From the NCBI GenBank assembly GCA_021108075.1, contig JAIORP010000115.1, forward strand, positions 1-62,933: DNA of 62,933 nt. Reading direction: 5' to 3'. Source of the DNA: Candidatus Omnitrophota bacterium (GTDB lineage: Bacteria; Omnitrophota; Gorgyraeia; Zapsychrales; Zapsychraceae). The translations under genes and the position numbers were made by a program. The notes below the pieces were generated by a model. It searched no databases. It had not been told where the DNA came from and was given only the letters and a program-made list of their open reading frames with translations. Shown here piece after piece: positions 1 to 62,873 of the stretch (positions within the stretch are counted from its first letter, which is position 1; every line of letters begins with the position of its first letter).

Positions 1-53
1 CTTAATTCTGAAAAGCAGAATTGGTTTTGGTCATTATTTAATGGAATTGGTAT
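1..53 (-). repeat. Truncated copy (short form) of the palindromic intergenic repeat family, cut by the window edge
   Basis: The reverse complement reads ataccaattccattaaataatgaccaaaaccaattctgcttttcagaattaag. This nearly matches the first 53 nt of the copies starting at 3561 and 62874. Confidence 0.85.
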
Positions 54-193
54 TAAAAGAAGTTTTTCGTCGTGTGCCGGAACAGTGAATGACTCCGGGA
101 GCAACTAAATTATTTTATCATTATGGGTTTTTAAAATAACAGCTTTGAATAATTCTAAAAAGCTGTATTTTTATTTGATAGAAAGGAAAACAT

Positions 194-2771: not shown

Positions 2772-3371
2772 ATGCCAATCAATAAATTAACCTCAAAACA
2801 GAAGGCTGTCCTTAAATACATTTATGATTCAATCAGATATCATAAATTGCCTCCCACGGTTAGGGAAATAGCGCAACACTTTAAGTTCAAATCAACCGGC
2901 ACTGTCAGGGATTATTTGAAAATCCTTGTGCGCGAGGGAGTTATACGAATAACAGCCAATAAATCCCGCGCCATTGAACTCGTGTACGAAAACCTTTTTG
3001 CGATCCCCATTCTCGGGCGTGTTCAGGCAGGCCTGCCCACATTGGCGGTAGAAGAAATTGAAGATTATTTAAATATGGATAGTCTGATTTTTTCAGAAAC
3101 AGATACATTTGCCTTACGCATCAAAGGAGAGAGCATGATTAATGCTGGTATTTTCTCGGGAGACCTTGTCCTGGTTCAAAAACAGAATATTGCCCAAACA
3201 GATGAGATTGTGGTCGCGGTCATTGGAGAGGAAGCGACGGTCAAACGCTTAAAGAAGAAGGGGGCGCGTTATTTCCTGGAGCCGGCTAATCCGCATTACC
3301 AAGACATTATCGTTGATGAACAGGTTAATATCATCGGTAAGGTCATTAGTGTCATTCGACGCTTTCATTGA
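2772..3371 (+). CDS. lexA: LexA repressor (S24 peptidase)
   Basis: N-terminal winged HTH (TVREIAQHFKFKSTGTVRDYL), an Ala-Gly cleavage site (VQAGLP), the catalytic Ser in GESM and the catalytic Lys in VKRLKK. Confidence 0.93.
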   Translation: MPINKLTSKQKAVLKYIYDSIRYHKLPPTVREIAQHFKFKSTGTVRDYLKILVREGVIRITANKSRAIELVYENLFAIPILGRVQAGLPTLAVEEIEDYLNMDSLIFSETDTFALRIKGESMINAGIFSGDLVLVQKQNIAQTDEIVVAVIGEEATVKRLKKKGARYFLEPANPHYQDIIVDEQVNIIGKVISVIRRFH

Positions 3372-3477: not shown

Positions 3478-3514
3478 TGAATATTGTATAGTGACACCAT
3501 CCAGAATTTAATGG

Positions 3515-3552
3515 AGTGAATCCCTCTGAGCTCTGCTGCGAGGAGATTCACT
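3515..3552 (+). repeat. Hairpin element (AGTGAAT...ATTCACT family), short version
   Basis: agtgaatccctc-tgagctctgctgc-gaggagattcact. It shares taatggagtgaat and gctctgctgcgaggagattcact with 891-1019. Confidence 0.7.
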
Positions 3553-3560
3553 GGCTGATA

Positions 3561-3642
3561 ATACCAATTCCATTAAATAATGACCAAAACCAATTCTGTT
3601 TTTCAGAATTAAGATAGAACAATTTATTAATGGATTTGGTGT
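3561..3642 (+). repeat. Palindromic intergenic repeat, 82-nt short form
   Basis: ataccaattccattaaataatgaccaaaaccaattctgtttttcagaattaagatagaacaatttattaatggatttggtgt. It lacks the apical hairpin present in the long copies. Confidence 0.85.
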
Positions 3643-3679
3643 AACCGTCCATTTTCACAAGAACAGGAAATCGGGTCTT

Positions 3680-5035
3680 ATGGGTATGTTTTTAAAAAGA
3701 ATTGTTGAATTTCTGAGTAACTCCTTTGAGGTGATTCTATCTATTAATTTTTTTGTTGTATTTTTTTATGTTTTCGCAATTTTTACTTTTCGATTGTTTT
3801 TTTCCTCTAAAAAAGATATTCGAAAAGTGATCAATAATTTGCTGTATGAATTGGTCTGTGTTGGCCAGGTTATTATGATCTTGACCTATGGCTATGTTTA
3901 TTGGATCAATTATCAGATACCATTAGATCCTTTTATTTTTCCAGACGATGTTCAGGTCAATACGACATGGGTCAGACAACATTTGACGCTGTATTTTGTC
4001 ATTGATGATACTTTTTGCTCGATCGATGTCGATGGCGCCAATCGGAAAGATTTTTTTAAAGCGGAGAGCGCTATCCGTGAGTATCATATGTCGCGGGATG
4101 GGAAGCATATCTTAGTGTCCACTAAAACACATCTTTATTTACTGAACCGCCAGACGTTGAAGGTTGATTTGATTGATCAAGCGATTGTTTCTTTGCCAAA
4201 ATCGGAAGACAAGGATAAGCCAGCGTCCAGTGAAGCGCTTTCTTCACGGGAGCGGGCGACAATGTCTCCAGGAAATGAAGAAGAATCGACCCGGCTGAAG
4301 GCGGTAATCAGTGGCATCCGTTGGTCTCCGACAAGCCGTCATTTTTCTTATGAAGTTAGCCGTTGGTCAAAGTATTCTGGCCAGAGCACTTTTTATATTT
4401 ATCAGATGGAACAACGTCAAAAGAAGCCTGTTAAGACGGGCTCTCACCGATTGACGTCCTTAAGATGGGATGATCAAGGGCAGAATTTATATTATCTGGA
4501 CCATGAAGTAAAGAATATGGCCCGTTATGCGTATCCGTATGAGCTGAAAGTGTATCAATTGCCGTTAGACACATTAAAGCCGAACATCATCACGCGTATT
4601 CCATCAGAGAAAAACGAATTGCCCATTGAGAGTCTGGGCTTGCGGGATATTGATTTGTATCTGGAGGGAGATAAATTGGTTTTTAAAAGACAGGATGTCC
4701 GAAATTATTTTAAGGACGACACCGGTCCGGCATTAGGCATTGATGATAAGGATTATTTGTACTTAAAATCGCATAGATGGTTTCGAAAAAGATTAATGAG
4801 AATTCCCCGTCGACCGGATCCCCTGGAATTGAAACGGCACCAATTTAAGGGCGGCCGTCTGATGGTCACCAATATCAGGTGGCTGCCGGAAGGGAAATAT
4901 ATCATTGCTCAGCACCAATATCTTGGAACCCTGATTATTAACCCATGGTTCATGTCTGTTGGTCAATTATCAGCTGAAGGAGGCGCCATCTTCGGTTGGT
5001 ATTATCCTGTCACGCTCTCCTCATCAGTGAATTGA
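3680..5035 (+). CDS. Hypothetical membrane-anchored protein with a large extracytoplasmic domain (beta-propeller-like by eye)
   Basis: Two N-terminal hydrophobic helices followed by about 370 aa of soluble sequence with repeated W/Y-rich strands (IRWSPTSRHFSYEVSRW, LRWDDQGQNLYYLD). Confidence 0.5.
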   Translation: MGMFLKRIVEFLSNSFEVILSINFFVVFFYVFAIFTFRLFFSSKKDIRKVINNLLYELVCVGQVIMILTYGYVYWINYQIPLDPFIFPDDVQVNTTWVRQHLTLYFVIDDTFCSIDVDGANRKDFFKAESAIREYHMSRDGKHILVSTKTHLYLLNRQTLKVDLIDQAIVSLPKSEDKDKPASSEALSSRERATMSPGNEEESTRLKAVISGIRWSPTSRHFSYEVSRWSKYSGQSTFYIYQMEQRQKKPVKTGSHRLTSLRWDDQGQNLYYLDHEVKNMARYAYPYELKVYQLPLDTLKPNIITRIPSEKNELPIESLGLRDIDLYLEGDKLVFKRQDVRNYFKDDTGPALGIDDKDYLYLKSHRWFRKRLMRIPRRPDPLELKRHQFKGGRLMVTNIRWLPEGKYIIAQHQYLGTLIINPWFMSVGQLSAEGGAIFGWYYPVTLSSSVN

Positions 5036-5941: not shown

Positions 5942-6091
5942 TACCATTTTATTTTTTTTAAAGGCCTTTTAATTCATTCTTAAGCGTTAATTTTTTTTGA
6001 GTCGGCAGAATTTTTTATCAAAAGACATCTTTTTTGCGGTCATAATCGGGTCTTAAGGTCAAGGATCCGCCTTTCGTCTATTCATGGAACA

Positions 6092-6195
6092 ATACCCATT
6101 CCATTAAATAATTGCCAAAACCGATTCTGCTTTTCTCGACGCTAAGGCGAGAAAAGCAGAATTGAAATAGAACAATTCATCAATGGATTTGGTAT
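6092..6195 (+). repeat. Palindromic intergenic repeat, 104-nt long form
   Basis: Outer arms atacccattccattaa / tcaatggatttggtat. Perfect apical stem attctgcttttctcg (6124-6138) / cgagaaaagcagaat (6148-6162). Confidence 0.9.
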
Positions 6196-6339
6196 AATCC
6201 TGCTCAATATTAGAATACGTTATTTATTCTTATTGAATGAATGGTTTCGTCGTTATTATGTGATGTTTATTGTTTTAGGAAGGAGCCACTTGCCGTGGCG
6301 CAAGTTTAATTAACAATTCGATATATGAAGGGGATGAAG

Positions 6340-8317: not shown

Positions 8318-8603
8318 TGCGGATCTTCGGCTATGCCTTTTAAAAAATGTTTTGAGATCATCGCGCGGGATATTAAAAGTTATGTTAACGGGGTATGGTT
8401 ATAATTGAATTAATTTATGGATAAACAATTGAGTTCCGAGGGATTTTTGATAAAATATTCGTGAACTGAAGATCAGGGCCTATGAAAGATAACAATGATC
8501 AGGAAGGTGTGTTTGTGAATCCCAAGACACTGTCTATTGTCCAAAAGATGGGGCAGAATTGAAATACAAGCAAAAAGAATAATTTGACTTATTTGAGTGA
8601 TAT

Positions 8604-11593: not shown

Positions 11594-14500
11594 ATGATAT
11601 CTAGAAATATATATATAAAAAATAAATTTCTGTTCTTCGCAGTTCTGTTTGTTTTTTCATTTTCTTTAATCTTAGTTGAAAATATTTCTTATGCCGATGA
11701 TATTCAAGCCGTACTGGATTCTGACGATGGATCGAGTGCGTTTTCTATCCAGGATTCTTCTTCAACGGAAGTCATGTCCATTGATTCGAATGGTGCGGTC
11801 ACAACTTCAGACAATATAACTGTTCAGGGCGGGGATGCCACCATTGGGGCCGGCACAACAGCCTATCCCGGACGTTTCATTCTTCATGACGGTGATGGCG
11901 GAGATAGCTTCACGACAACAATACAATCTAATGATGACGTAAATGCCAGTTATATTTTAACATTGCCGACAGACGACGGAAATCAGAACCAGTCATTGTT
12001 GACAGATGGTTCAGGGAATCTATCCTGGGGAGCGCCAACGGGTGGAAGCGGGGCTTATGATCTGAATGGTGAAACGTTAACGATCGACCTGGATGGCGAT
12101 ACATTCTTAGACGCGGCGACAGATGATCAATTGGACATCGCTGTTGGCGGGAGCGATGTTGTCCACTTGACAGGTTCTTCGCTGTATCCTGATATAGATG
12201 GTAGCTTGGATTTGGGTAGCATGACCAATGAATACAAGGATATTTATATCGATGGTACAGCGCATGTTGATTCTTTAAGCGCGGAGCTTGTTAATATTGT
12301 TAGCGGAACGATTGATAATGTGACAATTGGTGGCACGACAGCCGCAGCAGGTACATTTACGAGTTTGTCAACGACTGGCGATGCGACAGTGTCCGGTGGT
12401 GATGTCACGATGGGTGCGGGCACGATCGCGTATCCCGGCCGTTTGATGATGCATGATAATCAAGCCGGTGATTCTTTCACGGTGACGGTCCAAGCGAATG
12501 ACACTATCGCCGCAAGTTTTATTTTAACGCTTCCTGGTGACGATGGATCACAAAACCAGTCATTAATTACGGATGGTCAGGGAAATTTAAGTTGGGGTGC
12601 GCCTTCAGGAGGAACGGGTGCGTATGACCTTAATGGTGCGATTTTAACCATCGATGCTGACGCGGACACATCATTAGACGCCACAACAGATGATCAAATT
12701 GATATCACTATCGGTGGAAGCGATATTGTTCATCTGGTCCCAACGTCCATTTATCCTGAAACAGATGATAGTGTTGATTTAGGTCGTTCATCAAATGAAT
12801 TTCGAGATTTATATATTGATGGTACGGCTCACATTGATTCTTTGTCCTCTGATACCGTGACGATCGACGGCGGTTCAATGAATAATGTGACAATCGGAGG
12901 GACAACCGCAGCAGCTGGATCGTTTACGACTTTAACAGCCAGCACATCATTTGTCACGACCGGGGACGCGACCGTGTCCGGCGGGGATGTGACGGTTGGT
13001 GACGGGACAACGGCGTATCCTGCCCGTTTTGTCATGCACGACAATCAGGCGGGTGATTCGTTTACGATGACGGTACAGGCGAACGATACCATAGCCGCGA
13101 GTTTTATTTTAACGTTCCCTTCGGATGACGGTATATCCGCGCAATCTCTCATTACCGACGGTTCAGGGAATTTGAGCTGGGGCGCGCCTGCCGGAGGGAC
13201 CGGGGCGTATGACTTGAACGGGTCATTATTGACCGTGGATGCTGATGGGGATACGACAATACAGGCGGACACGGATGATCAAATCGATATTCAGGTCGCG
13301 GGCACGGATCAGTTCAGCATCACGGACGGGGCGATCACACCGACCACAGATAATGATATTGACCTGGGAAGTTTGAGCAGTGAGTATAAGGATTTGTATG
13401 TTGATGGTGTTGGATACATTGATTCCGTCTCCGCGGATACCTTGACAGCCACAAATGTGGATTTAGACGTCGGAACGATCGACAATGTAACGATTGGTGG
13501 GACAACAGCCGCGGCCGGAACGTTTACTTCAATTATAGCGAGCACGTCATTTGCCACGACCGGTGACGCGACCGTATCCGGCGGGGATGTGACGGTTGGC
13601 GACGGGACAACAGCTTATGCGGGCCGCATGGTGATGCATGACACCGACGGTGGTGACAGCTTCACGATGACGGTGCAGGCGAACGCGGACATCGGCGCTG
13701 ATTTCATTTTAACCTTACCGGCTAACGATGGAACCTCCGGACAACAATTAACGACTGATGGGGACGGGAATTTAACATGGGATGCGAATGGATCAGGAAG
13801 TTTAGATGATACGTACAATAATGGAAATACGGTTGACGTAGACGGAAGTGCGGTAATGTTGACTGTTAGTGATACAGATAACAATCAGGCTTTGAGTGTC
13901 GTTCAGAATGACGTGACCAATAATCCCGTTGCGATGAGTGTGACGAACGCAGGGACAGGTGATGCCTTGCAACTTATCAATTCTAATGCCGGCACTGTCG
14001 GGCCGACGCTTGTTATGCATCATGATTCCGCGTCACCATCTGATGGCGATGAGGTATCGAGAATTGAATTATCAGGTGATGATAGCGCGGGTGTTCGGAC
14101 TGAGTACGCCAGGATATATTCGTTGGCCAATGATGTGACAGATGGAACAGAAGATGGTGAGCTGATTTTTATGGTCGCTGATGAAGGAACCATCACAGAA
14201 GCTATGCGGATTGATGAGAGTGGTAATTTAGGACTGGGAGAAACCGTCCCTGCGGCAAAGCTTGAAATTGATACTGATGATGGTGATAATGTCGTTGGTT
14301 TAGTTATCGATCAGGATGACGTGACAAACGATATGGTCGCATTACAAATTGAGAATGCTGGTACAGGTGATGATATTTTAATTGTCAATACCGAAGCAGG
14401 TGCAACAGGTGCTGTTCTCACCCTTCAACATGATTCGGTTTCACCGGCTGATGACGACGATATTGGTATCATTGACTTTACTGCTGATGATGATGGTGGT

Positions 14501-15049
14501 ACGGCTTTTGACTTTGGCCGCATTTATGTTGAGTCGAACGATGTCTCGGATGGCACGGAAGACGCAAACATGATTTTTTCCGTAGCGAATGATGGGACTT
14601 TAGAAGAAGTCATTCGCATTGATGAAAGCGCGCAAATTGGTGTGGGGACGTCAACTCCATCCGCAAAATTAGATGTTAACGGCAGTGTAAGTTTATCGGG
14701 CACAGGCAGCGGATTTGATGCCAACAATAATACGATCTATTTCCAAAAACAAGAAGACACGGGGGCAACAGGAGCGGAGACAATTGATTGGCGCAATGGG
14801 AATAAGGTTGAACACACGTTAACCGGTAATGTGACGTATACATTCACGGATCCTTTAGATGTTTGCAATCTGTTGCTAATGTTGAAGCAAGACGGTACAG
14901 GCAGTCAAACCGTGACTTGGCCGGCTGGAGTCCAATGGCCGGGAGGAACCGCCCCGACATTATCAACCTCTGCCAATGCCATTGACATTGTCAGCTTCTA
15001 TTTTGATGGGATCAACTACTACGGTTCTGCCTCCCTTGATTTTCAATAA
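11594..15049 (+). CDS. Secreted tail-fibre-like repeat protein (1151 aa)
   Basis: Signal-peptide-like N-terminus. About 3.6 tandem units of roughly 190-200 aa (GGD[AV]T[IV]G.GT.AYPGR...SWGAP.GG.GAYDLNG...IDNVTIGGTTAAAG). Two units of about 115 aa that end in GxGxxxPxAKL[ED][IV]. Confidence 0.75.
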   Translation: MISRNIYIKNKFLFFAVLFVFSFSLILVENISYADDIQAVLDSDDGSSAFSIQDSSSTEVMSIDSNGAVTTSDNITVQGGDATIGAGTTAYPGRFILHDGDGGDSFTTTIQSNDDVNASYILTLPTDDGNQNQSLLTDGSGNLSWGAPTGGSGAYDLNGETLTIDLDGDTFLDAATDDQLDIAVGGSDVVHLTGSSLYPDIDGSLDLGSMTNEYKDIYIDGTAHVDSLSAELVNIVSGTIDNVTIGGTTAAAGTFTSLSTTGDATVSGGDVTMGAGTIAYPGRLMMHDNQAGDSFTVTVQANDTIAASFILTLPGDDGSQNQSLITDGQGNLSWGAPSGGTGAYDLNGAILTIDADADTSLDATTDDQIDITIGGSDIVHLVPTSIYPETDDSVDLGRSSNEFRDLYIDGTAHIDSLSSDTVTIDGGSMNNVTIGGTTAAAGSFTTLTASTSFVTTGDATVSGGDVTVGDGTTAYPARFVMHDNQAGDSFTMTVQANDTIAASFILTFPSDDGISAQSLITDGSGNLSWGAPAGGTGAYDLNGSLLTVDADGDTTIQADTDDQIDIQVAGTDQFSITDGAITPTTDNDIDLGSLSSEYKDLYVDGVGYIDSVSADTLTATNVDLDVGTIDNVTIGGTTAAAGTFTSIIASTSFATTGDATVSGGDVTVGDGTTAYAGRMVMHDTDGGDSFTMTVQANADIGADFILTLPANDGTSGQQLTTDGDGNLTWDANGSGSLDDTYNNGNTVDVDGSAVMLTVSDTDNNQALSVVQNDVTNNPVAMSVTNAGTGDALQLINSNAGTVGPTLVMHHDSASPSDGDEVSRIELSGDDSAGVRTEYARIYSLANDVTDGTEDGELIFMVADEGTITEAMRIDESGNLGLGETVPAAKLEIDTDDGDNVVGLVIDQDDVTNDMVALQIENAGTGDDILIVNTEAGATGAVLTLQHDSVSPADDDDIGIIDFTADDDGGTAFDFGRIYVESNDVSDGTEDANMIFSVANDGTLEEVIRIDESAQIGVGTSTPSAKLDVNGSVSLSGTGSGFDANNNTIYFQKQEDTGATGAETIDWRNGNKVEHTLTGNVTYTFTDPLDVCNLLLMLKQDGTGSQTVTWPAGVQWPGGTAPTLSTSANAIDIVSFYFDGINYYGSASLDFQ
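11828..13800 (+). repeat. In-frame tandem DNA repeats (units start about 11828, 12395, 12980 and 13580; period 567-600 nt)
   Basis: ggcggggatgtgacggttgg[t/c]gacgggacaac recurs at 12980 and 13580, with diverged copies at 11828 and 12395. Confidence 0.8.
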
Positions 15050-15798: not shown

Positions 15799-18700
15799 AT
15801 GCTTTATAAGCACACGGTACTTAATATAATAAAAGAACATGGTTCTAAAGTCATAGAAAAACATCAGGTGCATTTCTGGAAAGGATTGTCGTTTTTTTTC
15901 TTAAGCTTGGTCCTGATCTGGACTGTTGTTGTCCCTGTTCAAGCCCAGGGGATTTATATCCCGAGTGGTTCGGAAATGAATGTCGCGACAGGTCAACTCA
16001 GTGTTTCCGGTTATGTTGATATTGGGGGCACATTGAGTGTCGATACCGGAAGCGTTTCAACTTCAGGGAATTGGAGCAATTCAGGTGTTTTCACCCCTGG
16101 AACAGGTACTGTGTATTTTAATGGGACATCAGCGGCAACCCAGGTTTTGAACTCGGGTGGCATGGGCACCAATTATAATTTTTACAATATCGCCCATGAC
16201 GGAGCCAGTACTGTCCAGTTAAGCACTCATGCGTTGGATATTAATAATAATTTGTTGAATTCGTGCGGGAGCATCAACGCAAACGGCCAAAACATTACTG
16301 TTGCGGGATCCTGGACGAACGCAGCGACGTTTACGCATGGGAGTGCAACGGTCACATTTGATGGCACAGATCAAAATATCACTGGCGACACAATATTTTA
16401 TAACTTAATGAAAACGACTGCCGCATCTAATACAATGACGTTTACGAATGCCGATGAGCAAATCATCGAAGGGACGTTAACGCTATCAGGCGCGTCAGGG
16501 CAGCTATTGAATCTACGCAGTGACTCAACCAATGATCAATGGTATATCAATTTACGGCCAGGTGGTGCGCAAGCTCTCCAATACTTAGATGTTCAGGACT
16601 CGAACGCCTTTGGTATTACGGGTGGAGGAGATGGCGTGACTCTCGTTGCCGGTGGGACGTCAAACAATCAGGGAAACAATAACAATTGGGTCTTTGGCGG
16701 CGCCACATTGACGTGGCAGGGTGATGTGTCTGCGAACTGGAATATCCCTGGCAATTGGGATTTAGGTTTTGTCCCGGGGGCGGCAGATACGGCGTTTATT
16801 CCGACAGCACCTTTAGGCGGGATTCTTCCGACATTATCAGCCAGTGTTGATGTGACGGATTTAACATTGCAAACAGACGCAGCCGTTTTTTTAGCCGGCT
16901 ATGATCTGCAGGTGACAAACGCGGTCCAGACCGAGGGTACAGTTTATCTGTTTGGAAACGAAACGTTGACCATCGCGTCCATGAATAATGATTCGGGAAT
17001 ATTTAATTTTACCGGAGACAGCGATGGTATAAGTGAAATATTCGTGCTCTCCAGTTTAACGTACTACGATGTTGTCATCAATGATCCAGATGCGACAAAC
17101 GATACGTTCCTGTCTGCAACAGATATCAGCATCGCAGGGAACCTGACGATTACGGCGAGTGAATTTGATATATCAACCAATACGAATACTTTGACGGTCG
17201 CTGGAACTATTTCCGTTGATGACGCGATCCTGCGGGCCGATAATGGTCATGTTGACGCCAACGGCGATGTTGAACTGATCCATGCGAACAGTGAATTGCG
17301 TGCGCCAGGTAACGGACAAAGTTTCACGGTCTCCGGGGATTTTTCACATACAAATGGTACATTCACGCACAACAATGGCGTCGTGACGTTTAACGGGTCC
17401 AACCAATCAATTAATGGCAGTACGACTTTTTATGACTTCAATAAAACAGTCGCGTCGGCTGATACGCTGACCTTTGACCGTGCAGCAACTCAAACCATTA
17501 CGAATAGTCTCGTCCTGCAAGGAGCTTTGGGAAATATTCTTGATATTGAAAGCGATTTAGCAACCCAACAGTTTGCGATAACATTGCAGGCGGGGGCAAC
17601 GCAGACGTTGAGCTATCTGGAAGTCCGTGATTCAGCTGGAAGCGGGGGGATCGGCCTTGTTGCAAGGAATGCAAGTGAACCTAACGGTAATAATGATAAC
17701 TGGTTCTTCTCGGGCGCGAGTATAACCTGGGAAGGTGACGATGTCACGACACCAACAGATTGGGAAACAGCTGCTAATTGGGATTTAGGGATTGTTCCAA
17801 CGACGGATGATACAGCTGTTATTGCTGATGTTTCCGAGGAGCCTCTTTTGACCGCCGCAGCATCCGTCGACAATTTGACCTTGCTATCCGCGGCGACAGT
17901 CACCTTGAGCGGCTATGACATGACAGTCGCCAATATGTTGTCGAATGAGGGGACGATTTATGCCCGAGGGGACGAGACCGTCAATATCAATACAATGGAT
18001 ACAGACTCGGGTGACTATGTTTATACGGGGGATGGCGATGGCGCGGCGGACACGTTCATCATTGCCAATACCGGGACTTCTCCGTCAATGTATTACAATC
18101 TGCAGGTACACGACACGAATGCGACATCAGACACCTTTAGGACGGTACTGGATCTAACCGTTAATCATAATCTTAATGTTACCGACGGTGAGTTAGATAT
18201 CAGCGGGAATGGCAGCACGTTAACTCAGAGCGGTACGTTAACAATCAACGGAGGTGTTTTCCGTACGACAAATGGAACTGTCGATATAAACGGTAGTGTT
18301 GTCCTCAGTAGCGGAATATTTTTCGCGCCGGCCACCGGGCAGACATTCACCATTTCAGCTGACTTTATAAATAGCGGGGGAACGTTTACGCATAATTCTG
18401 GTTTGGTCGTGTTTGATACGACGAACACGTCAACGGTTACCGGGAACACTACTTTTTATGATTTTCAGGCTGCCGTAGGCGGAAAGTCGATGATTTTTGG
18501 GGGGATATCGAATCAAACCGTTGAGAACACACTGACAATGTCTGGGGCGAGCGGTAATCTTATGACAATCCAGTCAACGAACACCGGTGTTGATCAGTGG
18601 GAACTCACAGCTACAAATAGTACTCAATCGACCCAGTTTTTAGATTTAGCCGATGGTGCGGCTTCTGGTAATGATGTGTATTGTTTCAGCTGCACCAATT

Positions 18701-21700
18701 CAGGGAACAATGACGATCTTGCGGCTTCACCGCATTGGATCTTCATGACATTGTCGATCACGAACCCTGAGAGCGGAAAGACGGTTGACACAACCCCGAC
18801 GATTATCGGTGTCGGTCCGACCTCACAAACAATAACGTTCAGGGATATTGCCAACAATTTGATAGCGACGACTGATACGGATGTGAACGGCAACTACCGT
18901 GTTGAAGTGGATCCGTCAGACGCCCTGACAACAGGGGCTAATTCAATTACTCCTTATATCGGGGCCTTATCCGGAGGTGCTGTTCCCCTGGCCATTGCGG
19001 ATCCAACCACACCTGCACAAGTCCCTATCATCACGTCACATATTGATCAGCAACGTGTGAGCGGGGCAACGGTCACGGTCGCCGGGCAGGGTGCGAGTGG
19101 TGATACCGTTACGGTTATGGCCAATGATGCTGACGGGAATATGCTGCTGCAGACAGTTGGTTCCGGTTCGACCGACGGGGCAGGGGATTTTTCCTTTGCC
19201 TTGACGACGGATTTATTAAAAGGGGAAAATTATCTTTCTGTTACCGTTGATGGAGTTGCCAGTGGTATCGTTCCTGTCTTGTTGACCGATCCATTCGGTG
19301 TTGTGTTTGATTCTTCTTCGGACGGCCCTGTGAACAGTTCTATTGTCAGTTTGTACCGCGCATCAGATAATCAATTGGCCAATGCCGCAGATGGTGATAT
19401 CCATGCGACGGATACCAATCCGTATACAACAGCTGCTGATGGTTTTTATAGTTTCTTAACCGCTAATGGTGATTATTATCTTGAGGTTAATGTCGCAGGA
19501 TATGATTATCCTTCAACGGAGGTATCCTTCCCTGCGGGCAGAACAATCGTCACGGGCTCAAAGGGTGAGACATTTACCGTAAGCAGTGTCGTTATTGAAA
19601 TGGATCATCCCGCCGATCCAAACGCGCAAATTTTGCGTATTGCCAAGGATGCAAACAAAGGGGAGGTGACAGTCGGAGAAGTTGTGACCTATACCATGAC
19701 AATCGAGAACATTTCAAGCAATAACATCAGTAATGTTTATCTAAAAGATATTATTCCACCGGGTTTTAAATATCTTGAAGATCGCGTAATGTTGGACGGG
19801 GTGCCTATCTCTAATCCGTCGGGAAATCGACCGTTATTATTTTTTGTTGATTCGTGTCCGTCAGGGGTAACCAGGGTCTTAAAGTATCAGCTGATCGTTG
19901 GTGCGGGTGTTATCCCCGGAAATTATGATAATTCCGCTATTGCCCAGTTTAGTAATGGTAAGCTTTTATCGAATCGAACAACAGAAACGGTCAGAGTGGT
20001 CTTGGATCCGTTGTTTGATCTGGGTATGGTTATCGGTAAGGTATTTTTTGATAAGAATGATAATGGCATACAAGATGCTCCGCAGCATTATTGGGAAGGA
20101 AATGATGAGAAGATTGTCCTTGAAGAACCCATTCCTAACGTTCAGATTGTGATGGAGGATGGAACGGTTATTAAGACGGATGCAGAGGGCCGGTTTAGCG
20201 TTCAAAGCATTATTCCCGGACGGCATTTGTTTAGGATTGACGAACGCTCCTTACCGGAAGGCAGTTATTTAACGACAGAAAAAGTTGTTGTGATAGACGT
20301 TAAAGAGGGCATGATGCATAAAGTCAATTTCGGTGTTAATTTATACGGAGATCAGGTTTTCAGTGAAGACCGGAGTTTTTTTACGCAAAATGTTAAGGTT
20401 GCACTGGAAAGAAATAAACCGCATCCGCGTTTGAATGTTCGTATGTTTGAGGAAGAAGTTGGCGTCCTTAATAATGTCTTTATTCATCAAGTCGAGTTCA
20501 GGGTCTTTTGTAATTATATTTCTTTCATTAATACCTGGACATTAGAGATCCTCGATTGGGATACGCATCGTTTGATCAAAAGTTTTAGTGGGAATCATTT
20601 TACGTTGCATGATCCCATCTTCTGGGATGGCTTAGATCTAACAGGCGAACACATTCGTATTGATCGTCGATATGGCTATAGGGTAATAGTTAGTGATAAA
20701 CGGGGCAAAAAAGATGTGACAAAGATCATACCGTTGAATATTAAGAAATTAAAAACAGATGCTGAAAGGCAAGCTCATTTGCTGGCTCAGGAAAAGGCAC
20801 GGGAAGACTATATGAAATGGTTGGAAAAAGAAAATAAACAAAATCAACTTAAAGAACAGCATATTTTGATAGAAGGTGAGACGCTTACGATAGAACGATT
20901 GGTCAAGGGATTGCAGAATATTTCCATTTACAAAGGCGGCAGCCTGGTTGCTGAGTTGCCGATATTGGAGAAACGTGGTATCAGCGCCAGTGATTTATTA
21001 GACGGTGAAATTGTTAAGGATGCAGGAAAAACCATACCGCTTGAAGTTATCCTGCCTTATGGGGACTATGATATTATCGCTCAATCGACGGAAGCCAGCC
21101 CTTCCAGCCCGCCGCAACGATTTGAGCCAATAACGGGAAGTGTTTCCGGGGGTGTTTTTGTCGATGATCGAATAAAACCATCAGACAAGGTGATGAGGTC
21201 TTACCGTAAAGCGATCAAAGTCGGTGAAGATTATATGTTTTTTGTTGCTTTAGGTGATGCCTTGGCCGGGTACTCTTTCATGAAGGGAAAACTGGATGTG
21301 GTTGAACATGATGATAAATATAATGATGGTTTTTGGGTCGACGGTAAGATGGCGTATTTTTTGCAGGGTAAGATTAAAGGGAAATATTTGATCACATCGA
21401 GTTTTGATACCGACCGTGACCGCAAAGCCCTTTTCAAGAAGATCGAAAAAGATAAATATTATCCCGTCTATGGTGATTCTTCTACGGTCGACTATCAAGC
21501 GACAAATACACAAGGCCCGTTATATCTTTTAGTTGAGTGGGATAAATCATCTGTTTTATGGGGCAATTATAGTATCGGCTTTGATGAAACGGAGTTCGCT
21601 CAATTTTCTCGTACTTTGTATGGTGGGAAAGTGGACTTTGAATCCTTGAGCTCCACCGAATATGGAGAATCCCGAACGAAAGCGGTTGTCTTCAGAGCTC

Positions 21701-24700
21701 AAGCGCAGCAGAAATCAGCCCATAATGAATTATTATCGACGGGTGGGTCGCTGTACTATCTCAAGCATAAAGACATTATTCAGGGTTCAGATAAAGTGCT
21801 GATTGAAGTACGGGATAAGATTACAGGCCTTGTTCGGTTAACGAAAGAAATGGAAGAGGGTGTTGATTATGAAATGGATTATGATGAAGGACGTATGATT
21901 TTTTGGAAACCGGTAGAAGTTATGATGAATTCGGATTCCATTATTTCAAACCAATTGTTAGCCGGTGATATGATCCATGTGGTTGTCGATTATGAATATG
22001 ACATCAAAGATAGCTATGATCAGGCCAATATCGGTGCGCGTGTGCGACAAGCATTGACCGATGAGGTCATCGTTGGGGGCACATATGTCAAAGAAAATCA
22101 GGAGTCATCCGACTATGAGCTGAGCGGATTTGATATGAAGATTCATTTAGGCAAAGATGCAACGGTCATGGCTGAATATGCCCAATCCCAGTCAGAAGCG
22201 GAAGGCTCATTTGTTTCAACCGATGGGGGTATTACGTTTATCGAGTTGTCCACGGATGATTCCGCCCGGGGAAAAGCATTTGGCATTAAGGGAGACGCGC
22301 GTTTGTTTAATAAGATTGGTCTCTCCGCGGCATATAAATATATTGATAATAATTTTTCAACATCAGCAACTTCAGCCCAGCAGGGCAAAGAAATTTTTGG
22401 ATTTAATGCTGTTTATGATGTGAACGAGTCAACACGGCTAACCTTGAGCCAGGATATTCAACGTCTGATAGAAGAGGGCAATTTGCAAACACAGTTACAA
22501 GTGGGCGCAACACAGACAGCAACAACACTGGTTCAGTTGGTCCACGAAGCGCGTCGTTTGCGTTTAACGGCAGAATACCGTCACCAGGATGTAACAGAAA
22601 GATTAGATCAATTTGATTCTCAAACGAATTCTGAAGATGACACCTTAGCCGTCCAGGTGGATTATAAATTGAATGACAAGATTGCCTTAAAGGTGAAGCA
22701 GCAGGTTGGTATGTCAGAAGATTCCACGACGCAAACAACCATCGGTATCGTTGCGAAACCAACAGATAAGCTCGTCCTGTCCGCCGAGAAGACATTAGGA
22801 GAGGGGGGTGTTGCAACAAGCGTTGATGCCAAAGTGGATATGAACGGCCTGTTTACTTTGACCGGGGACTATTCAATTAAGGGCGAGGAGTCCGGTAAAT
22901 ACTTATCAGACACGACAACATCTGCATCGGTTGGAGCCTCAAAAAAAATTAGTGACCTCGTTGAGTTGGAAAGTAAATTTGGTGTTATTGATATCCTCGG
23001 AGAGGCTGAAACCGCTACGGTGTCTTTAGGAGGAAAATCCCAGGTCGACGAACAAACGTCAATAGAAAGCTCCATCGCATTAGCGACATCGGATGATTCT
23101 CAAGCGACAACGTTTAGTTTTGGCGGAAGTTCGCAAGTCGATGACAAAACAAAGGTGGAAAGCAAGATCTCTTTAACTGGCGCGGATGATGGTGGTACGA
23201 CGACTTTGACGTTTGGTGGGACTTCTCAAGTGGATGAAAAGACACGGAGTCAGAGTTCCATGTCTGTCACAGATTCGACATCTGGTGAAGCCGTCCGGGC
23301 GTTCAATTTTGGGACAACAACTAAATTAACAGACGACATTCAACTCGCTTCGAATCAAATTTTTAATACGGGCCAAGAAAACAGGAAGACGGAAGACAAG
23401 TACAGTTTGGTCAGGGTTAAAGACGGCCGTAAGTTGGAAGGTTCATTGTCACGTGTTTATTCTCAGAATACCGATGAGATTTCGAGCTCGAACATTTTTG
23501 GTTTAACAGGAGATGTTGATGATAAGTGGGCATTGACGGGATCATTTGAAAGAGGTGCTATCCAGAAGCATGATGGTGCACATTCAGACCGGCAAGCCAT
23601 TTCCATCGCGTTAGGCTATGTCGATAAAGACCAGGAGACGGGCGAGACATTGCAGAGTTCGACCAAAGTCGAAGTTGTGTTGGATGATGGAGATCAAGAT
23701 AAGAGACAGTATCTGGTCTATCATACGACAGAAGGAAAACTAACCTCTGAGTGGGATATCTTTAGCCGGTTGGAGTACTCCAAAACGCGAAATTTAACGG
23801 CTGGAGTGACGGAAGCCCGTCATCGCAAATTTATTCTCGGTGGAGCTTTTCGTCCCATTCTGCATGACCGGTTCAATTTTTTAGGCCGTTACACTTATTT
23901 AGAAAATAAATCTCCTGCGGACCAAACGGATAATGCGGACGTTGAAGAGGAAGCCGCGCACGTGATCTCTACAGGGATCATTTATGATATTAATGATCAA
24001 TGGCGGTTTTCTGAAAGATTTGCTTACCGGATTGGGAAGGAAAAGGTTGTTGGGTTTGACTTTAATAAAACACATACGTGGTTGATGATTCATCGTCTCG
24101 ATTATAAGATTTCACCGAATTGGATGGTTGGAGGAGAATACCGGGCGTTAACGCAAAGAGAAGCGAAAGACAGCCGCCGGGGATTATTAATCGAGGTCGT
24201 GCGCAATATCAATGAATATGCTCAGATAGGCGCGGGATATAACTTCACGGACTTTACGGATGATCTGACAGATTTAGACTATCAACGCCAGGGAGCTTTT
24301 GTCCGTTTGACCGGGAAGTTTTATGATCAAACTCCGGAAGAAATCGAACGGGCCAAACAAAAATGGATTGAAGAGAAAATCAAACGATGGGCTTGGGTGA
24401 TGGTCAGTGATGAGCTGCAGCGCGATAATAGCCCGATATTAGATGAACTCAATCACTGTTTCATTCTAGCAGAATCAGCTGGTCAGGCCGGGGACTATCA
24501 GGAAGCGCATAAAATTTATTTGGATATTATTTCAGCCGGTCAGATGATGTATGAAGAAGCGGCCGACTATATTCGGTCACAGATCGTGCAAGAGCGCCGT
24601 TGGAAAGATATGAGCAAGCAAGCGGATCAATTGATCCATAAAGGCCAATATGAAAAAGCTAAGAAAATATTAGAGAAAATTCTGGAAGAAGTTTATCAAG

Positions 24701-24714
24701 GTGTGCTAGAATGA
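15799..24714 (+). CDS. Giant surface/outer-membrane protein (2971 aa)
   Basis: Long signal region ending VQA|QG. Three modules of about 345 aa (markers TFYNLMKT, TFYDFNKT, TFYDFQAA). Ig-like segments, a DUF11-like segment (VTVGEVVTYTMTIENISSNNISNVYLKDIIPPGFKY) and a Cna-B/SdrD-like segment (GKVFFDKNDNGIQD...EGRFSV). About 1000 aa of alternating beta-strand-like sequence, then a helical tail. Confidence 0.8.
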   Translation: MLYKHTVLNIIKEHGSKVIEKHQVHFWKGLSFFFLSLVLIWTVVVPVQAQGIYIPSGSEMNVATGQLSVSGYVDIGGTLSVDTGSVSTSGNWSNSGVFTPGTGTVYFNGTSAATQVLNSGGMGTNYNFYNIAHDGASTVQLSTHALDINNNLLNSCGSINANGQNITVAGSWTNAATFTHGSATVTFDGTDQNITGDTIFYNLMKTTAASNTMTFTNADEQIIEGTLTLSGASGQLLNLRSDSTNDQWYINLRPGGAQALQYLDVQDSNAFGITGGGDGVTLVAGGTSNNQGNNNNWVFGGATLTWQGDVSANWNIPGNWDLGFVPGAADTAFIPTAPLGGILPTLSASVDVTDLTLQTDAAVFLAGYDLQVTNAVQTEGTVYLFGNETLTIASMNNDSGIFNFTGDSDGISEIFVLSSLTYYDVVINDPDATNDTFLSATDISIAGNLTITASEFDISTNTNTLTVAGTISVDDAILRADNGHVDANGDVELIHANSELRAPGNGQSFTVSGDFSHTNGTFTHNNGVVTFNGSNQSINGSTTFYDFNKTVASADTLTFDRAATQTITNSLVLQGALGNILDIESDLATQQFAITLQAGATQTLSYLEVRDSAGSGGIGLVARNASEPNGNNDNWFFSGASITWEGDDVTTPTDWETAANWDLGIVPTTDDTAVIADVSEEPLLTAAASVDNLTLLSAATVTLSGYDMTVANMLSNEGTIYARGDETVNINTMDTDSGDYVYTGDGDGAADTFIIANTGTSPSMYYNLQVHDTNATSDTFRTVLDLTVNHNLNVTDGELDISGNGSTLTQSGTLTINGGVFRTTNGTVDINGSVVLSSGIFFAPATGQTFTISADFINSGGTFTHNSGLVVFDTTNTSTVTGNTTFYDFQAAVGGKSMIFGGISNQTVENTLTMSGASGNLMTIQSTNTGVDQWELTATNSTQSTQFLDLADGAASGNDVYCFSCTNSGNNDDLAASPHWIFMTLSITNPESGKTVDTTPTIIGVGPTSQTITFRDIANNLIATTDTDVNGNYRVEVDPSDALTTGANSITPYIGALSGGAVPLAIADPTTPAQVPIITSHIDQQRVSGATVTVAGQGASGDTVTVMANDADGNMLLQTVGSGSTDGAGDFSFALTTDLLKGENYLSVTVDGVASGIVPVLLTDPFGVVFDSSSDGPVNSSIVSLYRASDNQLANAADGDIHATDTNPYTTAADGFYSFLTANGDYYLEVNVAGYDYPSTEVSFPAGRTIVTGSKGETFTVSSVVIEMDHPADPNAQILRIAKDANKGEVTVGEVVTYTMTIENISSNNISNVYLKDIIPPGFKYLEDRVMLDGVPISNPSGNRPLLFFVDSCPSGVTRVLKYQLIVGAGVIPGNYDNSAIAQFSNGKLLSNRTTETVRVVLDPLFDLGMVIGKVFFDKNDNGIQDAPQHYWEGNDEKIVLEEPIPNVQIVMEDGTVIKTDAEGRFSVQSIIPGRHLFRIDERSLPEGSYLTTEKVVVIDVKEGMMHKVNFGVNLYGDQVFSEDRSFFTQNVKVALERNKPHPRLNVRMFEEEVGVLNNVFIHQVEFRVFCNYISFINTWTLEILDWDTHRLIKSFSGNHFTLHDPIFWDGLDLTGEHIRIDRRYGYRVIVSDKRGKKDVTKIIPLNIKKLKTDAERQAHLLAQEKAREDYMKWLEKENKQNQLKEQHILIEGETLTIERLVKGLQNISIYKGGSLVAELPILEKRGISASDLLDGEIVKDAGKTIPLEVILPYGDYDIIAQSTEASPSSPPQRFEPITGSVSGGVFVDDRIKPSDKVMRSYRKAIKVGEDYMFFVALGDALAGYSFMKGKLDVVEHDDKYNDGFWVDGKMAYFLQGKIKGKYLITSSFDTDRDRKALFKKIEKDKYYPVYGDSSTVDYQATNTQGPLYLLVEWDKSSVLWGNYSIGFDETEFAQFSRTLYGGKVDFESLSSTEYGESRTKAVVFRAQAQQKSAHNELLSTGGSLYYLKHKDIIQGSDKVLIEVRDKITGLVRLTKEMEEGVDYEMDYDEGRMIFWKPVEVMMNSDSIISNQLLAGDMIHVVVDYEYDIKDSYDQANIGARVRQALTDEVIVGGTYVKENQESSDYELSGFDMKIHLGKDATVMAEYAQSQSEAEGSFVSTDGGITFIELSTDDSARGKAFGIKGDARLFNKIGLSAAYKYIDNNFSTSATSAQQGKEIFGFNAVYDVNESTRLTLSQDIQRLIEEGNLQTQLQVGATQTATTLVQLVHEARRLRLTAEYRHQDVTERLDQFDSQTNSEDDTLAVQVDYKLNDKIALKVKQQVGMSEDSTTQTTIGIVAKPTDKLVLSAEKTLGEGGVATSVDAKVDMNGLFTLTGDYSIKGEESGKYLSDTTTSASVGASKKISDLVELESKFGVIDILGEAETATVSLGGKSQVDEQTSIESSIALATSDDSQATTFSFGGSSQVDDKTKVESKISLTGADDGGTTTLTFGGTSQVDEKTRSQSSMSVTDSTSGEAVRAFNFGTTTKLTDDIQLASNQIFNTGQENRKTEDKYSLVRVKDGRKLEGSLSRVYSQNTDEISSSNIFGLTGDVDDKWALTGSFERGAIQKHDGAHSDRQAISIALGYVDKDQETGETLQSSTKVEVVLDDGDQDKRQYLVYHTTEGKLTSEWDIFSRLEYSKTRNLTAGVTEARHRKFILGGAFRPILHDRFNFLGRYTYLENKSPADQTDNADVEEEAAHVISTGIIYDINDQWRFSERFAYRIGKEKVVGFDFNKTHTWLMIHRLDYKISPNWMVGGEYRALTQREAKDSRRGLLIEVVRNINEYAQIGAGYNFTDFTDDLTDLDYQRQGAFVRLTGKFYDQTPEEIERAKQKWIEEKIKRWAWVMVSDELQRDNSPILDELNHCFILAESAGQAGDYQEAHKIYLDIISAGQMMYEEAADYIRSQIVQERRWKDMSKQADQLIHKGQYEKAKKILEKILEEVYQGVLE

Positions 24715-24823: not shown

Positions 24824-27800
24824 ATGATATTGAAAAAAAAATATTATATTTTATTATTTCTCATCACGCTGTTTATCACGCCCATCGTTTCTGCCCAGGA
24901 GCTTGGTAAGGCTCAAGTCCCACAACCGTTTAAAGAGCAAAAATTGGAAGAGGGGTTTATTCTTGATTTAAAATCGTTGATAGAAAAGTCCAAAAAGAAA
25001 ATTGAAAAAGTTGATGAAAAAATCAAGGAACAGGCTGTTTATCGGCGGAATTTGCAAAGGGAAGAAAAAGCGCGGGGGCTCTACCAACAAGCGCTGCGTC
25101 TTTTTGAGGAAGAGAAATATGACAAAGCCGGAGAAATTTGGGAAAAAGCCATCGTGATTACGGGACATCCTGAGATGAAGGATTATATGCGTACAAGCGT
25201 TAAACGCACGAAGAAAAAAATAAAAGCGATGAAGAAGGCGGAAGAAGTTCGGATTCAACAACTGGAAGAGGACAGAGGCTATACGTTCAAACAAGTTGAG
25301 AAAGAATATCAAACCGCAATAAGTCTGTATAAAAAAGGTCAGTACTTAGAATCCCGGAAACGTTTTGAGCAAGTTGAAAAAATGTTCTTGGACCACAAAG
25401 GAACGCGCAGCTATTTAAAGTTGATTGATATGCACATTCAAGAAGAGCAAAAAAGACTTATCGCTCAGAAATTAAAAGAAAAGGCGACAGAGCGAAAAAA
25501 GAAAAAAGCCGAATGGCGGACAACAATTGCGAATCAGGAAAAAGAAAAGTCGATAGAGAAAAAAGAAAAAGCAGCGAATTTATACACTGAAGCGATCAAA
25601 CTGTATAAGATTCAGCAATATGGTTCCGCTAAAGAAAAATTCAAGGAAATTGAATGGCTTTTGCCGAATTACCGCTCCACCCGTAAGTACCTGATTAAAG
25701 TTAAGAAGGCGATTAGGAAAGAAGAAGAAAGAAAGAAAAATCATAAAGAACGGATCATCGATGAACGATTAGAAGAAGTTGTGAATTTGCGTTTTGAAGA
25801 ACAGCAAAAAATAAGGTCTTCTGCCCGGAAAAAGTTGGATAAAGAGAAAAGATTGAAAGAAGAAGCGGATTTCATATATAAAGCCGCCCTGAATTTGTAT
25901 AACCAGAAAGATTACATCGGCGCGCATAATAAATTCAAGGAAGTTCATGAGATTTATCCCTTTTATAAAAAGACAAATAAGTATATTAAAAAACTAGCAA
26001 AAAAAATTGTCGCTATTCAAAGGAAGAAGGTTGATCAAGAGAAGGCTGATCAGGAAGAACCGAAGAAAATGGAATCCATGGACGTTCGGGGTGAGAACAC
26101 AGAGTTAACACCCATGCAAATGCAGGCCTTGTCTTTAGCGTATGATTCAGCTGTTTCCTTATACGAGAGCAAACACTATGAGATGGCATCTGCGCGATTT
26201 GAGGATATTCGGGGGATTAATCCCTCCTATAAAAAGACAGCTTTATATCTAGAGAAGATCGATAAAATTTTGAATAAAAAAAAGGTAATAAAGCCCAGAT
26301 CTAAGAAAGACCTCGTTCGACAGAAGAAGAAGGAACTGAATCCGGTCTACCAGGAGGGGATTAAATTATTTGAACAGAGGCAATATTTGGCCTCGAAATC
26401 GCTCTTTGAACAGGTTCAAAAAACGATACCGAACTATAAGCAAACGAAGAAGTATTTGCATGATATCAAACAGGCTCAATATGATGATGTTGAGGGATTC
26501 CTGAATCAGACGGGTTTATCGACATTGCCTTATAACGATAAGATTGTTTATGAGATACGGGAACGGCGAAAACAATTGGTCGAGCAATCGGAAGTAAAAT
26601 ACAAAACGGCTTTAGCTCTATATCACACCAACAAATATCAGCAGTCCAAACAGAAATTTATTGAATTAGAAGCTTTTTATCCCGGGTATAAAGATGTTTT
26701 AATGCATCTTGCCAAGATCGATGATGAAATAGCAAGGGCTGTTGTGCCGCCGGATAGAAAATTAGAAAAGATCCGGATTGATAATACCCAATGGGAGCCG
26801 GAAGTCTTTCAGCGTAAAATTCAGGTGGAACAGATTGTGAACGATGGATCCAATAGGGTCGAAAATATTTATTCAGAGGCGAGGGCTCTTTATAAACGAA
26901 AGCAATATGAAGAAGCTTTCAGCAAATTTTTAGAGGTGAACCAATTGCAACAGGGGTATAAATCGGTTAAGCCGTACATGAAAAAAACTGAGCGGATGAT
27001 AGAAAGGTTACAGCTTAAAAAAGATCGCCAACAGGCCAAAGAACAAGCGCGTTTAGTAAAACTTAAAAAATTTGAAGCAAAGAAGCCTGGGAGTCATGCT
27101 GCGGCTGAAAAAAAGAGACTGGCGGATATTAAGGCCCAGGAAGAAGAGGCTTTGAAATTAGCGCAAGAAGAAGAACAATTAGCGCGTGATAAAATTAAAG
27201 AAGCTTTGCGTTTAGAAAAAATAAAGAAGAAAAAGTTAGCTCAAAAGGAACGGCAAAATACAATCGCGCAGAAAAAACAAGAAAAAGAACAGCGTCGGAT
27301 GGAAGCTTTGAAGAAAAAAGAGTTGAAAAAGAATAAGAAGTCTCAGAATTTAGCAAAGCGTCTGGCAGAGAAAGAAAGTCGGCGTTTAGAGAAATTAAGG
27401 GAGAAAGAGGAAAAAGAAAAAAAAGCTGCGCAACTAGCATTGCAGAAAGAATTGTCGGAGAAGAATAGATTGCAGGATGAATTGAAACGGCAAGCTGAAA
27501 AGGAACAGGCACAAAGTCAAAAAGAAAGAGATCAACTTCGTTTAAAGCGTTTAAAGGAAAAACAAGATAATCTCAAAGCCAAACAGGAAGCGAAAGCTCG
27601 AAGAAAATTGGAGAAAGAGCAAAAGCGTGAAGAAAAAAGGGCCCAAAAACAATTTAAAGCAGATCAAAAGGAAAAGAACAGATATGGAACCGTCTATAAC
27701 TCGCAAGAGGACGAACAACAGCTGAGCAAACGCGCGCGTAAAGTGCAGACGGGTATCAAAAAGGACCAAGGTCAAGTCGATCGTCATAAGCAAAAAGTTG

Positions 27801-38509: not shown

Positions 38510-38751
38510 AAGGAAGTTTTTTTCCCAGGTATTTTTTCGTTAAGGCGTGTTTGTTATGGCGAAGAGATCGTTTCCTACTGTCATACGAAATCTGATAAGA
38601 ATATGATATTTATTTTTTCTTCGCCTAATTTTTCTGCTCATCCCGAACAGGCGCCTCCGTCTTGAAGCAATCCATATGATGTTGATTCCGGGCATGATGG
38701 GGTTCTTTGATGAATCCCTTCCACCTCGATCAGTGTGACAGAAAGACAATC

Positions 38752-38855
38752 ATACCAAATTTATTAGTGAATTGTTCTATTTCAATTCTGATATTCTCGC
38801 TAAAGTGTCGAAAAAAGCAGAATCGATTTTTGTCATTATTCACTGGAGTTGGTAT
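38752..38855 (-). repeat. Palindromic intergenic repeat, 104-nt long form, diverged
   Basis: The reverse complement reads ataccaactccagtgaataatgacaaaaatcgattctgcttttttcgacactttagcgagaatatcagaattgaaatagaacaattcactaataaatttggtat. Confidence 0.85.
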
Positions 38856-39084
38856 AATCGAATATTTAGAAAACGGGAGGGATTGTCTTCTCGCTCAAAG
38901 TATCTGTTTATGATGTGAAAACGTGAAGGATAACTTCAGCTGTCAGGAGTTGAGAGGGTCTGAATTCTTTTGTAAGATCAGTATGGATGAAGACATGGAA
39001 TTGTCGGTGTTCTCTTGGGTGAAACCCATAGAAATACTTGCTAAAGGAGGTATCCTTTAATGACAGATAGTCTGGGTGAAACGG

Positions 39085-43147: not shown

Positions 43148-43273
43148 TTAACCCGGAAAAAGCAACTGGAATCGTAACGAGAAGGCATAAATTATTGCAA
43201 GTGCAAGGCATAACGTAGCAATTGCGACGAGTTTTGCCTTCGTAGTAGATCCCAATTGCATTTTCCGGGTTAA
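43148..43273. terminator. 126-nt imperfect palindrome filling the convergent gap, probably a bidirectional terminator
   Basis: ttaacccggaaaa (43148-43160) pairs perfectly with ttttccgggttaa (43261-43273). The arms continue as gcaactggaatc/gatcccaattgc and gaaggca/tgccttc. Confidence 0.5.
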
Positions 43274-44409: not shown

Positions 44410-44480
44410 GTTATTTTTGTTATAAAATTCAAAGTAATACTTATGGCGTAAATTGCCGTTCGTGTCTGGTAATACTAATT

Positions 44481-44584
44481 ATACCAATTCCATTAAATAA
44501 TGACCAAAACCAATTCTGTTTTTCTTGACGTTAAGGCAAGAAAAGCAGAATTGAAATAGAACAATTCATTAATGGATTTGGTAT
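44481..44584 (+). repeat. Palindromic intergenic repeat, 104-nt long form
   Basis: ataccaattccattaaataatgaccaaaaccaattctgtttttcttgacgttaaggcaagaaaagcagaattgaaatagaacaattcattaatggatttggtat. Confidence 0.9.
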
Positions 44585-44719
44585 AAATCGTGTATCGTCG
44601 AGATATCTTCATTTCACCGGATATGAACGACGATTTGCGACTTCAGGTCCCGCATGCATATTTTTGACGGTCGGATGTTGAGACCTTGGACATGAATGAT
44701 ATTATCTCATCATAAAATA

Positions 44720-47964: not shown

Positions 47965-48024
47965 GATAAGATGCTGATTAAGATGAACCGAGTATTAAAT
48001 TGAAACAAGTTGAAAGGAATGAAA

Positions 48025-62871: not shown

Positions 62872-62873
62872 TT

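Follow-up and report, generated by a model that had tools for sequence, protein, structure and literature searches.

The DNA analysed here, hereafter the window, is a stretch of 62,933 nt from a Candidatus Omnitrophota bacterium (GenBank assembly GCA_021108075.1, contig JAIORP010000115.1), in which seven copies of an imperfectly palindromic repeat lie scattered between open reading frames (ORFs). The long ORFs are nearly all on the + strand and GC skew is positive in every 2-kb bin, a pattern consistent with a position of the window on the leading strand of one replichore. Three very large ORFs stand in a row, at 11594-15049 (1151 aa, with four internal repeats of about 570-600 nt), 15799-24714 (2971 aa, with a DUF11 match only) and 24824-29221 (1465 aa, with no Pfam match and located in a strongly A-over-T skewed stretch where AT skew rises up to 0.33). 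A tandem repeat at 48726-48923, made of about 8-11 units of the 18-nt sequence TGTTGAGGGYTCTGGCRC, lies within the ORF at 48010-48999, where it gives a short repeated peptide motif. A G+C-rich motif, CTCNNAGCTCTGCTSCGAGG, with hairpin potential (CTCG...CGAG), occurs in three intergenic copies (890-935, 991-1019 and 3507-3552), the last of them immediately upstream of the repeat copy at 3561.

The seven copies had been reported in an earlier note on this DNA, and all were found again at the same coordinates and on the same strands, each of them between ORFs as the note had claimed. A 25-nt probe taken from the left arm and allowed up to three mismatches matched the window six times, against 0.00 matches expected from 100 shuffles, and the seventh copy (38752-38855, - strand) was recovered by nhmmer and a covariance model. 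When the window was scanned with the covariance model at full sensitivity, the five internal copies were the only ones returned. Three copies belong to an 82-nt short form (3561-3642, together with 1-53 and 62874-62933, which are cut), and four belong to a long form that measures 103-104 nt by the earlier coordinates. Read side by side with the long form, the short form misses 22 nt, which agrees with the earlier description of a form devoid of the apical segment. Both ends of the window fall within copies, and longer contigs of the same population read through these points and contain complete 82-nt copies (Table 1). A decayed half copy had also been suspected at 8553-8603; no covariance-model match was obtained there with filters off and E<=5, and the site was rejected as a member of the family. 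All that it has in common with the right arm of long-form copies is an exact 14-mer at 8553-8566, GCAGAATTGAAATA, which is either a remnant or a coincidence and which lies just upstream of a response-regulator gene.

Table 1. Copies of the repeat in the window, followed by elements with the same or similar ends in other phyla (contig handles begin with L).
Feature	Position	Strand	Ends, duplication and length	Surroundings and complete versions
Short-form copy cut by window start	1-55	-	GGTA end at 49-52 (+ strand); TAA duplication at 53-55	Complete 82-nt version on contig L296, 9779-9860
Short-form copy	3559-3644	+	TAA duplication at 3559-3561 and 3642-3644; element 3562-3641 (80 nt); right terminus mutated to GGTG	lexA-like gene (2772-3371) and ORF 3680-5035
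Long-form copy	6090-6197	+	CAA on the left (6090-6092), TAA at 6195-6197; element 6093-6194 (102 nt); apical hairpin TGCTTTTCTCG/CGAGAAAAGCA at 6128-6158	SPOR-domain gene and LpoB-like gene
Long-form copy	38750-38857	-	Flanks mismatched, TTA/TGA (element orientation); diverged, 81% to the 6092 copy	
Long-form copy	44479-44586	+	Flanks TTA/TAA; apical stem tip CTTG/CAAG	lpxB (43270-44409, -) and GFO/IDH/MocA oxidoreductase gene (44720-45670, -); antisense to both
Long-form copy	57784-57890	-	101-nt element; perfect TAA/TAA duplication; apical stem TAATATTCTCG/CGAGAATATTA	AdoHcyase start codon (57919) 30 nt downstream of the end of the copy
Short-form copy cut by window end	62872-62933	+	TTA duplication at 62872-62874	Duplication immediately 3' of the aroE stop codon (62869-62871); complete version with TTA/TTA duplication on contig L294, 10873-10954
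Bdellovibrionales nzgw163 element	L233 3121-3299; also L236, L251, L259, L269		179 nt	
Bdellovibrionota MAG_1466 elements	L229, L255, L276		100-130 nt	
Colwellia MAG element	L272 4072-4332		261 nt	
Pseudoalteromonas sp. HL-AS1 element	L293 2324-2532		About 209 nt; similar ends, TTA flanks	

The element proper runs from TACC to GGTA and measures 102 nt (long form) or 80 nt (short form). The first A and last T of the earlier limits belong to a TNA duplication of the target. Across the family, elements are 68-105 nt long, with rare variants of 130-180 nt, and no ORF fits inside. The termini are inverted repeats of about 20 bp, TACCAATTCCATTAAATAAT ... ATTATTTAATGGAATTGGTA, which form a perfect 20-bp inverted repeat, TACCAATTCCATTAAATAAT / ATTATTTAATGGAATTGGTA, in the outer arms of MAG SRP128015_co1_466 and whose 20 pairs are 91.9% paired over 50 copies. 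Inward of these, two boxes are conserved and unpaired (GACCAAAAYC to the left, AAAATAGARCAATT to the right), and an inner stem of 16 bp is capped by CTCG-N9-CGAG. Different inner stems define subfamilies A, B and C, beside which mosaics are also present. Internally deleted short forms measure 68-80 nt overall, and those of 70-71 nt have arisen independently in two other genomes. Truncated copies occur as well, as do head-to-tail tandems with one flanking trinucleotide in common (for example L013 2059-2357). Two longer variants, of 130 nt (L294 14083-14211, in the window genome) and 157 nt (L234 6894-7050, in OFTM38), have in their left arm a common extra module, TTGTACA...AGTGAGACCAAATCCAA.

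Many further copies were found in the genome and its relatives. In the window and the collected loci nhmmer gave 122 non-overlapping matches, from which 57 unique full-length copies with flanks were taken, and pattern scans over a species-representative genome collection and metagenome contigs turned up dozens of copies. Most of them come from a MAG labelled 'uncultured Planctomycetales SRP128015_co1_466' and from VAPK01 metagenome contigs with the same sequences; Candidatus Omnitrophota OFTM38 and one marine-sediment contig are further hosts. Besides the genome of the window, no fewer than two Omnitrophota MAGs carry the family. The window's own population also carries copies on ERZ26872899 and related contigs, and three extra copies within 10 kb beyond the window ends bring the count to ten over some 83 kb of that genome. 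The LeuA protein of the window is 72-77% identical to that of many Omnitrophota MAGs, which places the host in this phylum. No copy was found at the LeuA loci of 80 other genomes (1.06 Mb), so that the family is lineage-restricted at that sampling. The earlier statement that the repeat resembles no named family was borne out for Rfam, where no family matched: only three tRNAs pass the threshold in the window, and permissive matches on the copy itself reach at most 18 bits, against gathering thresholds of 44-100. A literature search combining Omnitrophota and MITE returned nothing relevant.

The flanks carry the trace of insertion. Two positions before the first A of the earlier limits a T is found in 52 of the 57 copies, two positions after the last T an A is found in 53, and the middle base is the same on the left and on the right in 42/57, against 22.5 ± 3.2 by shuffle (0/100,000 shuffles reach 42). 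Since G/G and C/C are among the identical middle bases, the flanks repeat each other directly and do not prolong the inverted repeat. The element makes a fixed 3-bp TNA target-site duplication, shown by the statistics on 57 copies and confirmed by two nested insertions in which the empty site can be read directly. In the first of these, located in L019, a B-type copy splits a repeat of another, unrelated family, whose intact version in L036, L127 and L134 reads CAAAAATAAYTT and which in L019 reads CAAAA-TAA-[element]-TAA-TTT. In the other, the copy in L030 interrupts a variant family member, intact in L137 as CTTAAT-TAA-ATAATT and split in L030 as CTTAAT-GAA-[element]-TAA-ATAATT. The repeat split in L019 belongs to a second palindromic family of the MAG/VAPK population, unrelated to the present one, of the form TAAGGAATCGTTCAAAAATAACTTGAAGGCTTATGATTGAACCCTCC...GGTTAATTTAAAC...AAGTTATTTTTGAACGATTCCTTA (L127 around 150-290, L036 around 2890-3020, L134 around 4700-4850 and L019 5040-5130). 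We consider that the repeats form a MITE family, that is, a non-coding DNA transposon of Omnitrophota, and give this reading a probability of about 0.85.

Wherever synteny allows orthologous sites of the window genome and the MAG to be compared, copies found in one genome are missing from the other. In the window genome a copy lies between aroE and pilD, two genes that overlap in the MAG. The lpxB spacer of the window likewise contains an element, but in the MAG its two flanking genes adjoin with no element between them, the two spacers being too diverged for a base-level reconstruction of the empty site. Reciprocally, the copy beside the L002 gene block is missing from the orthologous spacer of the window genome. 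At the level of strains no filled/empty polymorphism was seen, same-population contigs being 99.7-100% identical across the sites. The four short copies of the window genome are 95-98.8% identical to each other and all four have perfect duplications (TAA, TAA, TTA and TGA), whereas its long copies are 72-91% identical and one of four has a perfect duplication. The short form, which has lost the apical hairpin, is the subfamily of most recent amplification, the youngest and the most uniform, and the apical hairpin is thus dispensable for spread. Insertion occurs in either orientation. Surviving copies are confined to intergenic DNA and the far 3' ends of genes, often lying precisely on a TAA or TGA stop codon; the L294 copy at 12062, for instance, sits on a duplicated TGA. 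Of the 57 copies, eight distinct ones begin right at the upstream ORF's stop codon, whereas several ORFs extend 19 nt into the terminal repeat. TAA and TGA being themselves TNA sites, an insertion on a stop codon regenerates the stop.

Terminal inverted repeats combined with a 3-bp TNA duplication are the signature of DDE cut- or copy-and-paste transposition and not of hairpin-recognising HUH enzymes. The MITE would be mobilised in trans by a DDE transposase whose cut is staggered by 3 bp, and this putative enzyme would be IS5-family- or PIF-Harbinger-like, to judge only from the length of the duplication and its TNA motif. By binding two identical ends, it would make the outer 'stem' palindromic and covarying; the inner hairpin is carried along and is not needed for spread. 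Neither an autonomous element nor a transposase with these ends was found in the window, in the 10 kb past each of its ends or in about 2 Mb of collected loci. Truncated or orphan ends adjoin ordinary genes and no autonomous element, and a scan for the terminal repeat alone yielded related MITE-like families and no transposase. Two other routes led to rejected candidates: a scan for repeated ORFs returned only chance matches to conserved housekeeping genes, and inverted ends separated by 0.3-3.5 kb have host genes, menB among them, in between. IS5-family ends in ISfinder are typically GG/GA, unlike TACC. Several accepted bacterial MITEs, including Correia, likewise have no known autonomous partner.

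From the pairing of the two arms the earlier note had drawn selection on a hairpin, acting either as an ssDNA substrate or as a structured RNA. What it described stands: the stem variants of the copies at 6128-6158 and 57786, three double changes apart, are exact, the CTTG/CAAG variant of the copy at 44481 reads as claimed, and pairing is conserved through double changes in both stems. RNAalifold applied to a MAFFT alignment gave the outermost 9 pairs only, because the subfamilies differ by bulges, and the pairing analysis was therefore based on a named structure and on a covariance-model alignment. When the alignment is left unfitted, 86.3% of cells pair, compared with 32-48% for slid partners, and the covariation score is 0.109 against 0.087 ± 0.004, a score that 0/500 shuffles reach. 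When 67 unique long copies are aligned by fitting to the model, two pairs of the inner stem change from one subfamily to another (GC 47 / AU 10 in one, UA 44 / GC 11 / AU 7 in the other), and on the reference strand G-U cells outnumber A-C cells, 135 to 66. All of this speaks for a structured non-coding or cis-regulatory RNA (a terminator, a stabiliser or an sRNA) whose hairpin would be under selection and whose dispersal would be secondary. Yet the double changes mostly separate a few subfamilies and so amount to few independent events. Like two-sided changes are seen in the terminal repeats (AT 45 / CG 6, for example), where binding of both ends by one transposase would produce them, so that covariation is not diagnostic of RNA here. 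With respect to co-directional flanking genes, 21 copies are sense and 20 antisense, there is no difference in folding energy between the strands (26 vs 31, Wilcoxon p=0.44), a terminator scan in and around the copy at 44481 gave no terminator-like site, and Rfam has no match. The duplications, nested insertions and orthologous presence/absence, moreover, record insertion events, and the youngest subfamily lacks the very hairpin supposed to be selected. That the copies are primarily instances of an RNA is thus very unlikely, and the step from covariation to hairpin selection is not supported, on these same points. Covariation does show that palindromy is maintained, without showing at which level. 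Transposase binding to the termini does not by itself account for the strongly conserved unpaired boxes or for the pairing-preserving changes of the inner stem; hairpin-templated correction, inheritance from variant masters or selection on a DNA or RNA hairpin may keep the pairing, with mRNA-end stability, RNase III processing and outward promoters as candidate secondary benefits.

The other half of the earlier inference, a hairpin serving as ssDNA substrate for an HUH/Y1 transposase in the manner of REP/BIME with RAYT or of palindromes derived from IS200/IS605, would fit the ability of each copy to fold as one long imperfect hairpin (mean MFE about -30 kcal/mol) and the tandem copies seen in places. 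Families moved by HUH enzymes are not known to produce target-site duplications or to have transposon-type terminal inverted repeats, and they insert beside a fixed tetra- or pentanucleotide. The terminal inverted repeats of the present family and its 3-bp TNA duplication, established by statistics and by two nested insertions, argue strongly against this, no REP-type GTAG head is present, and no RAYT or TnpA(Y1) gene appears among the Pfam labels of the window and its flanks, which makes such a mechanism extremely unlikely. A transposon with a different duplication is a further reading, as every copy can be read ...TA-CC...GG-TA...: the element would then be CC...GG, with ends CCAATTCC...GGAATTGG, and belong to an IS630/Tc1-mariner-type MITE duplicating TA, like RUP or Correia. 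That division of the sequence does not account for the T at -2 and the A at +2, both conserved, or for the 42/57 identity of the middle base. It also predicts CAAAATAATATAATTT as the empty site of L019, whereas the uninterrupted copies read CAAAAATAAYTT, as a TAA duplication predicts; we hold it to be highly improbable.

As a TNA-duplicating MITE, the Omnitrophota family has several known counterparts. The Correia elements of Neisseria (CREE/NEMIS), rightly proposed as analogues in the earlier note, are likewise non-coding and intergenic, about 100-150 bp long with terminal inverted repeats of about 20-26 bp, and exist as many copies in full-length and internally deleted classes that fold as a long hairpin and have no known autonomous partner. 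Correia elements duplicate TA, in contrast to the TNA of the present family, with which they have no sequence similarity; their terminal sequence differs from the Omnitrophota ends, and the hosts belong to different phyla. In both families, element end and duplicated target can jointly create a sigma-70-like -10 box: here, the element end TTGGTA followed by TAA and T reads TGGTATAAT, an outward extended -10 consensus, as a matter of sequence resemblance only. Promoters, an IHF site and RNase III cleavage have been reported for Correia elements (PMC10969869). Tourist-like MITEs and PIF-Harbinger elements, as well as the IS1031, ISL2 and IS427 groups of the IS5 family, resemble the Omnitrophota elements in their short terminal inverted repeats and 3-bp T-N/W-A duplication. 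The target motif of the IS1031 group is TNA. The link is through the duplication signature only, the TACC termini being unlike the GG/GA ends of IS5-family groups. Canonical Harbinger elements, relatives of the IS5 family, duplicate 3 bp (PMC12730594).

RUP of Streptococcus pneumoniae and other IS630-derived MITEs are comparable in being palindromic, intergenic, about 107 bp long, presumably mobilised in trans and inserted in a short AT-rich target, sometimes beside or into other repeats. RUP duplicates TA, a model that fails for the Omnitrophota MITE. ERIC, REP/BIME and BOX are alike in being intergenic, imperfectly palindromic and multi-copy, and have no sequence or Rfam match with the MITE. 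REPs are about 35 nt long, have a GTAG head, depend on RAYT and make no duplication, and BOX elements are modular and devoid of terminal repeats of the MITE type. The Omnitrophota elements differ from REP/BIME in their length of about 100 nt, their TACC ends, their duplication and the absence of RAYT from the Pfam labels of neighbouring genes.

A scan for terminal repeats revealed the same 20-nt repeat, TACCAATTCCAYTAAWTAAT, flanked by T.A and placed around unrelated interiors, in other phyla (Table 1). A Synechococcales MAG has single terminal-repeat ends. In Pseudoalteromonas, where the version of the repeat is TACCAAT..., the element is multi-copy, with 4-16 places per chromid. Plasmid and phage collections searched by BLAST with the consensus gave only weak matches at the ends, and these led to this Pseudoalteromonas family. 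Among the Bdellovibrionales relatives, the middle base of the flanks is identical in 8 of 15 copies, too small a sample to demonstrate a duplication there.

These repeats are thus a new MITE family, one more representative of a well-known type of element and no novel structured RNA, and the current understanding of transposons is unchanged by them. Catalogues of MITEs are poor except for a few cultured pathogens, and their recognition here has practical consequences. For annotation, it explains ORFs that seem about six codons longer at their 3' end. For assembly, the window stops within a copy at either end, as do several short-read contigs from its population, so that the repeat is what breaks these assemblies; contigs ending in this way are L040, L041, L043, L044 and L298.

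For the organisms themselves, the regeneration of a stop codon upon landing is a tidy route to persistence in genomes with almost no intergenic space. It is conceivable, though we would give it only an outside chance, both that the copies act as portable regulatory modules in these compact Omnitrophota genomes, their boxes and inner hairpin being kept for outward extended -10 promoters, RNase III sites or 3'-end stabilising hairpins, and that they belong to a cross-phylum superfamily with one terminal repeat, spanning Omnitrophota, Bdellovibrionota, Cyanobacteria and Gammaproteobacteria and served by one putative TNA-duplicating transposase whose landings stop codons survive. In any case, a terminal repeat common to Bdellovibrionales, Colwellia and Pseudoalteromonas hints at a widespread transposase lineage.
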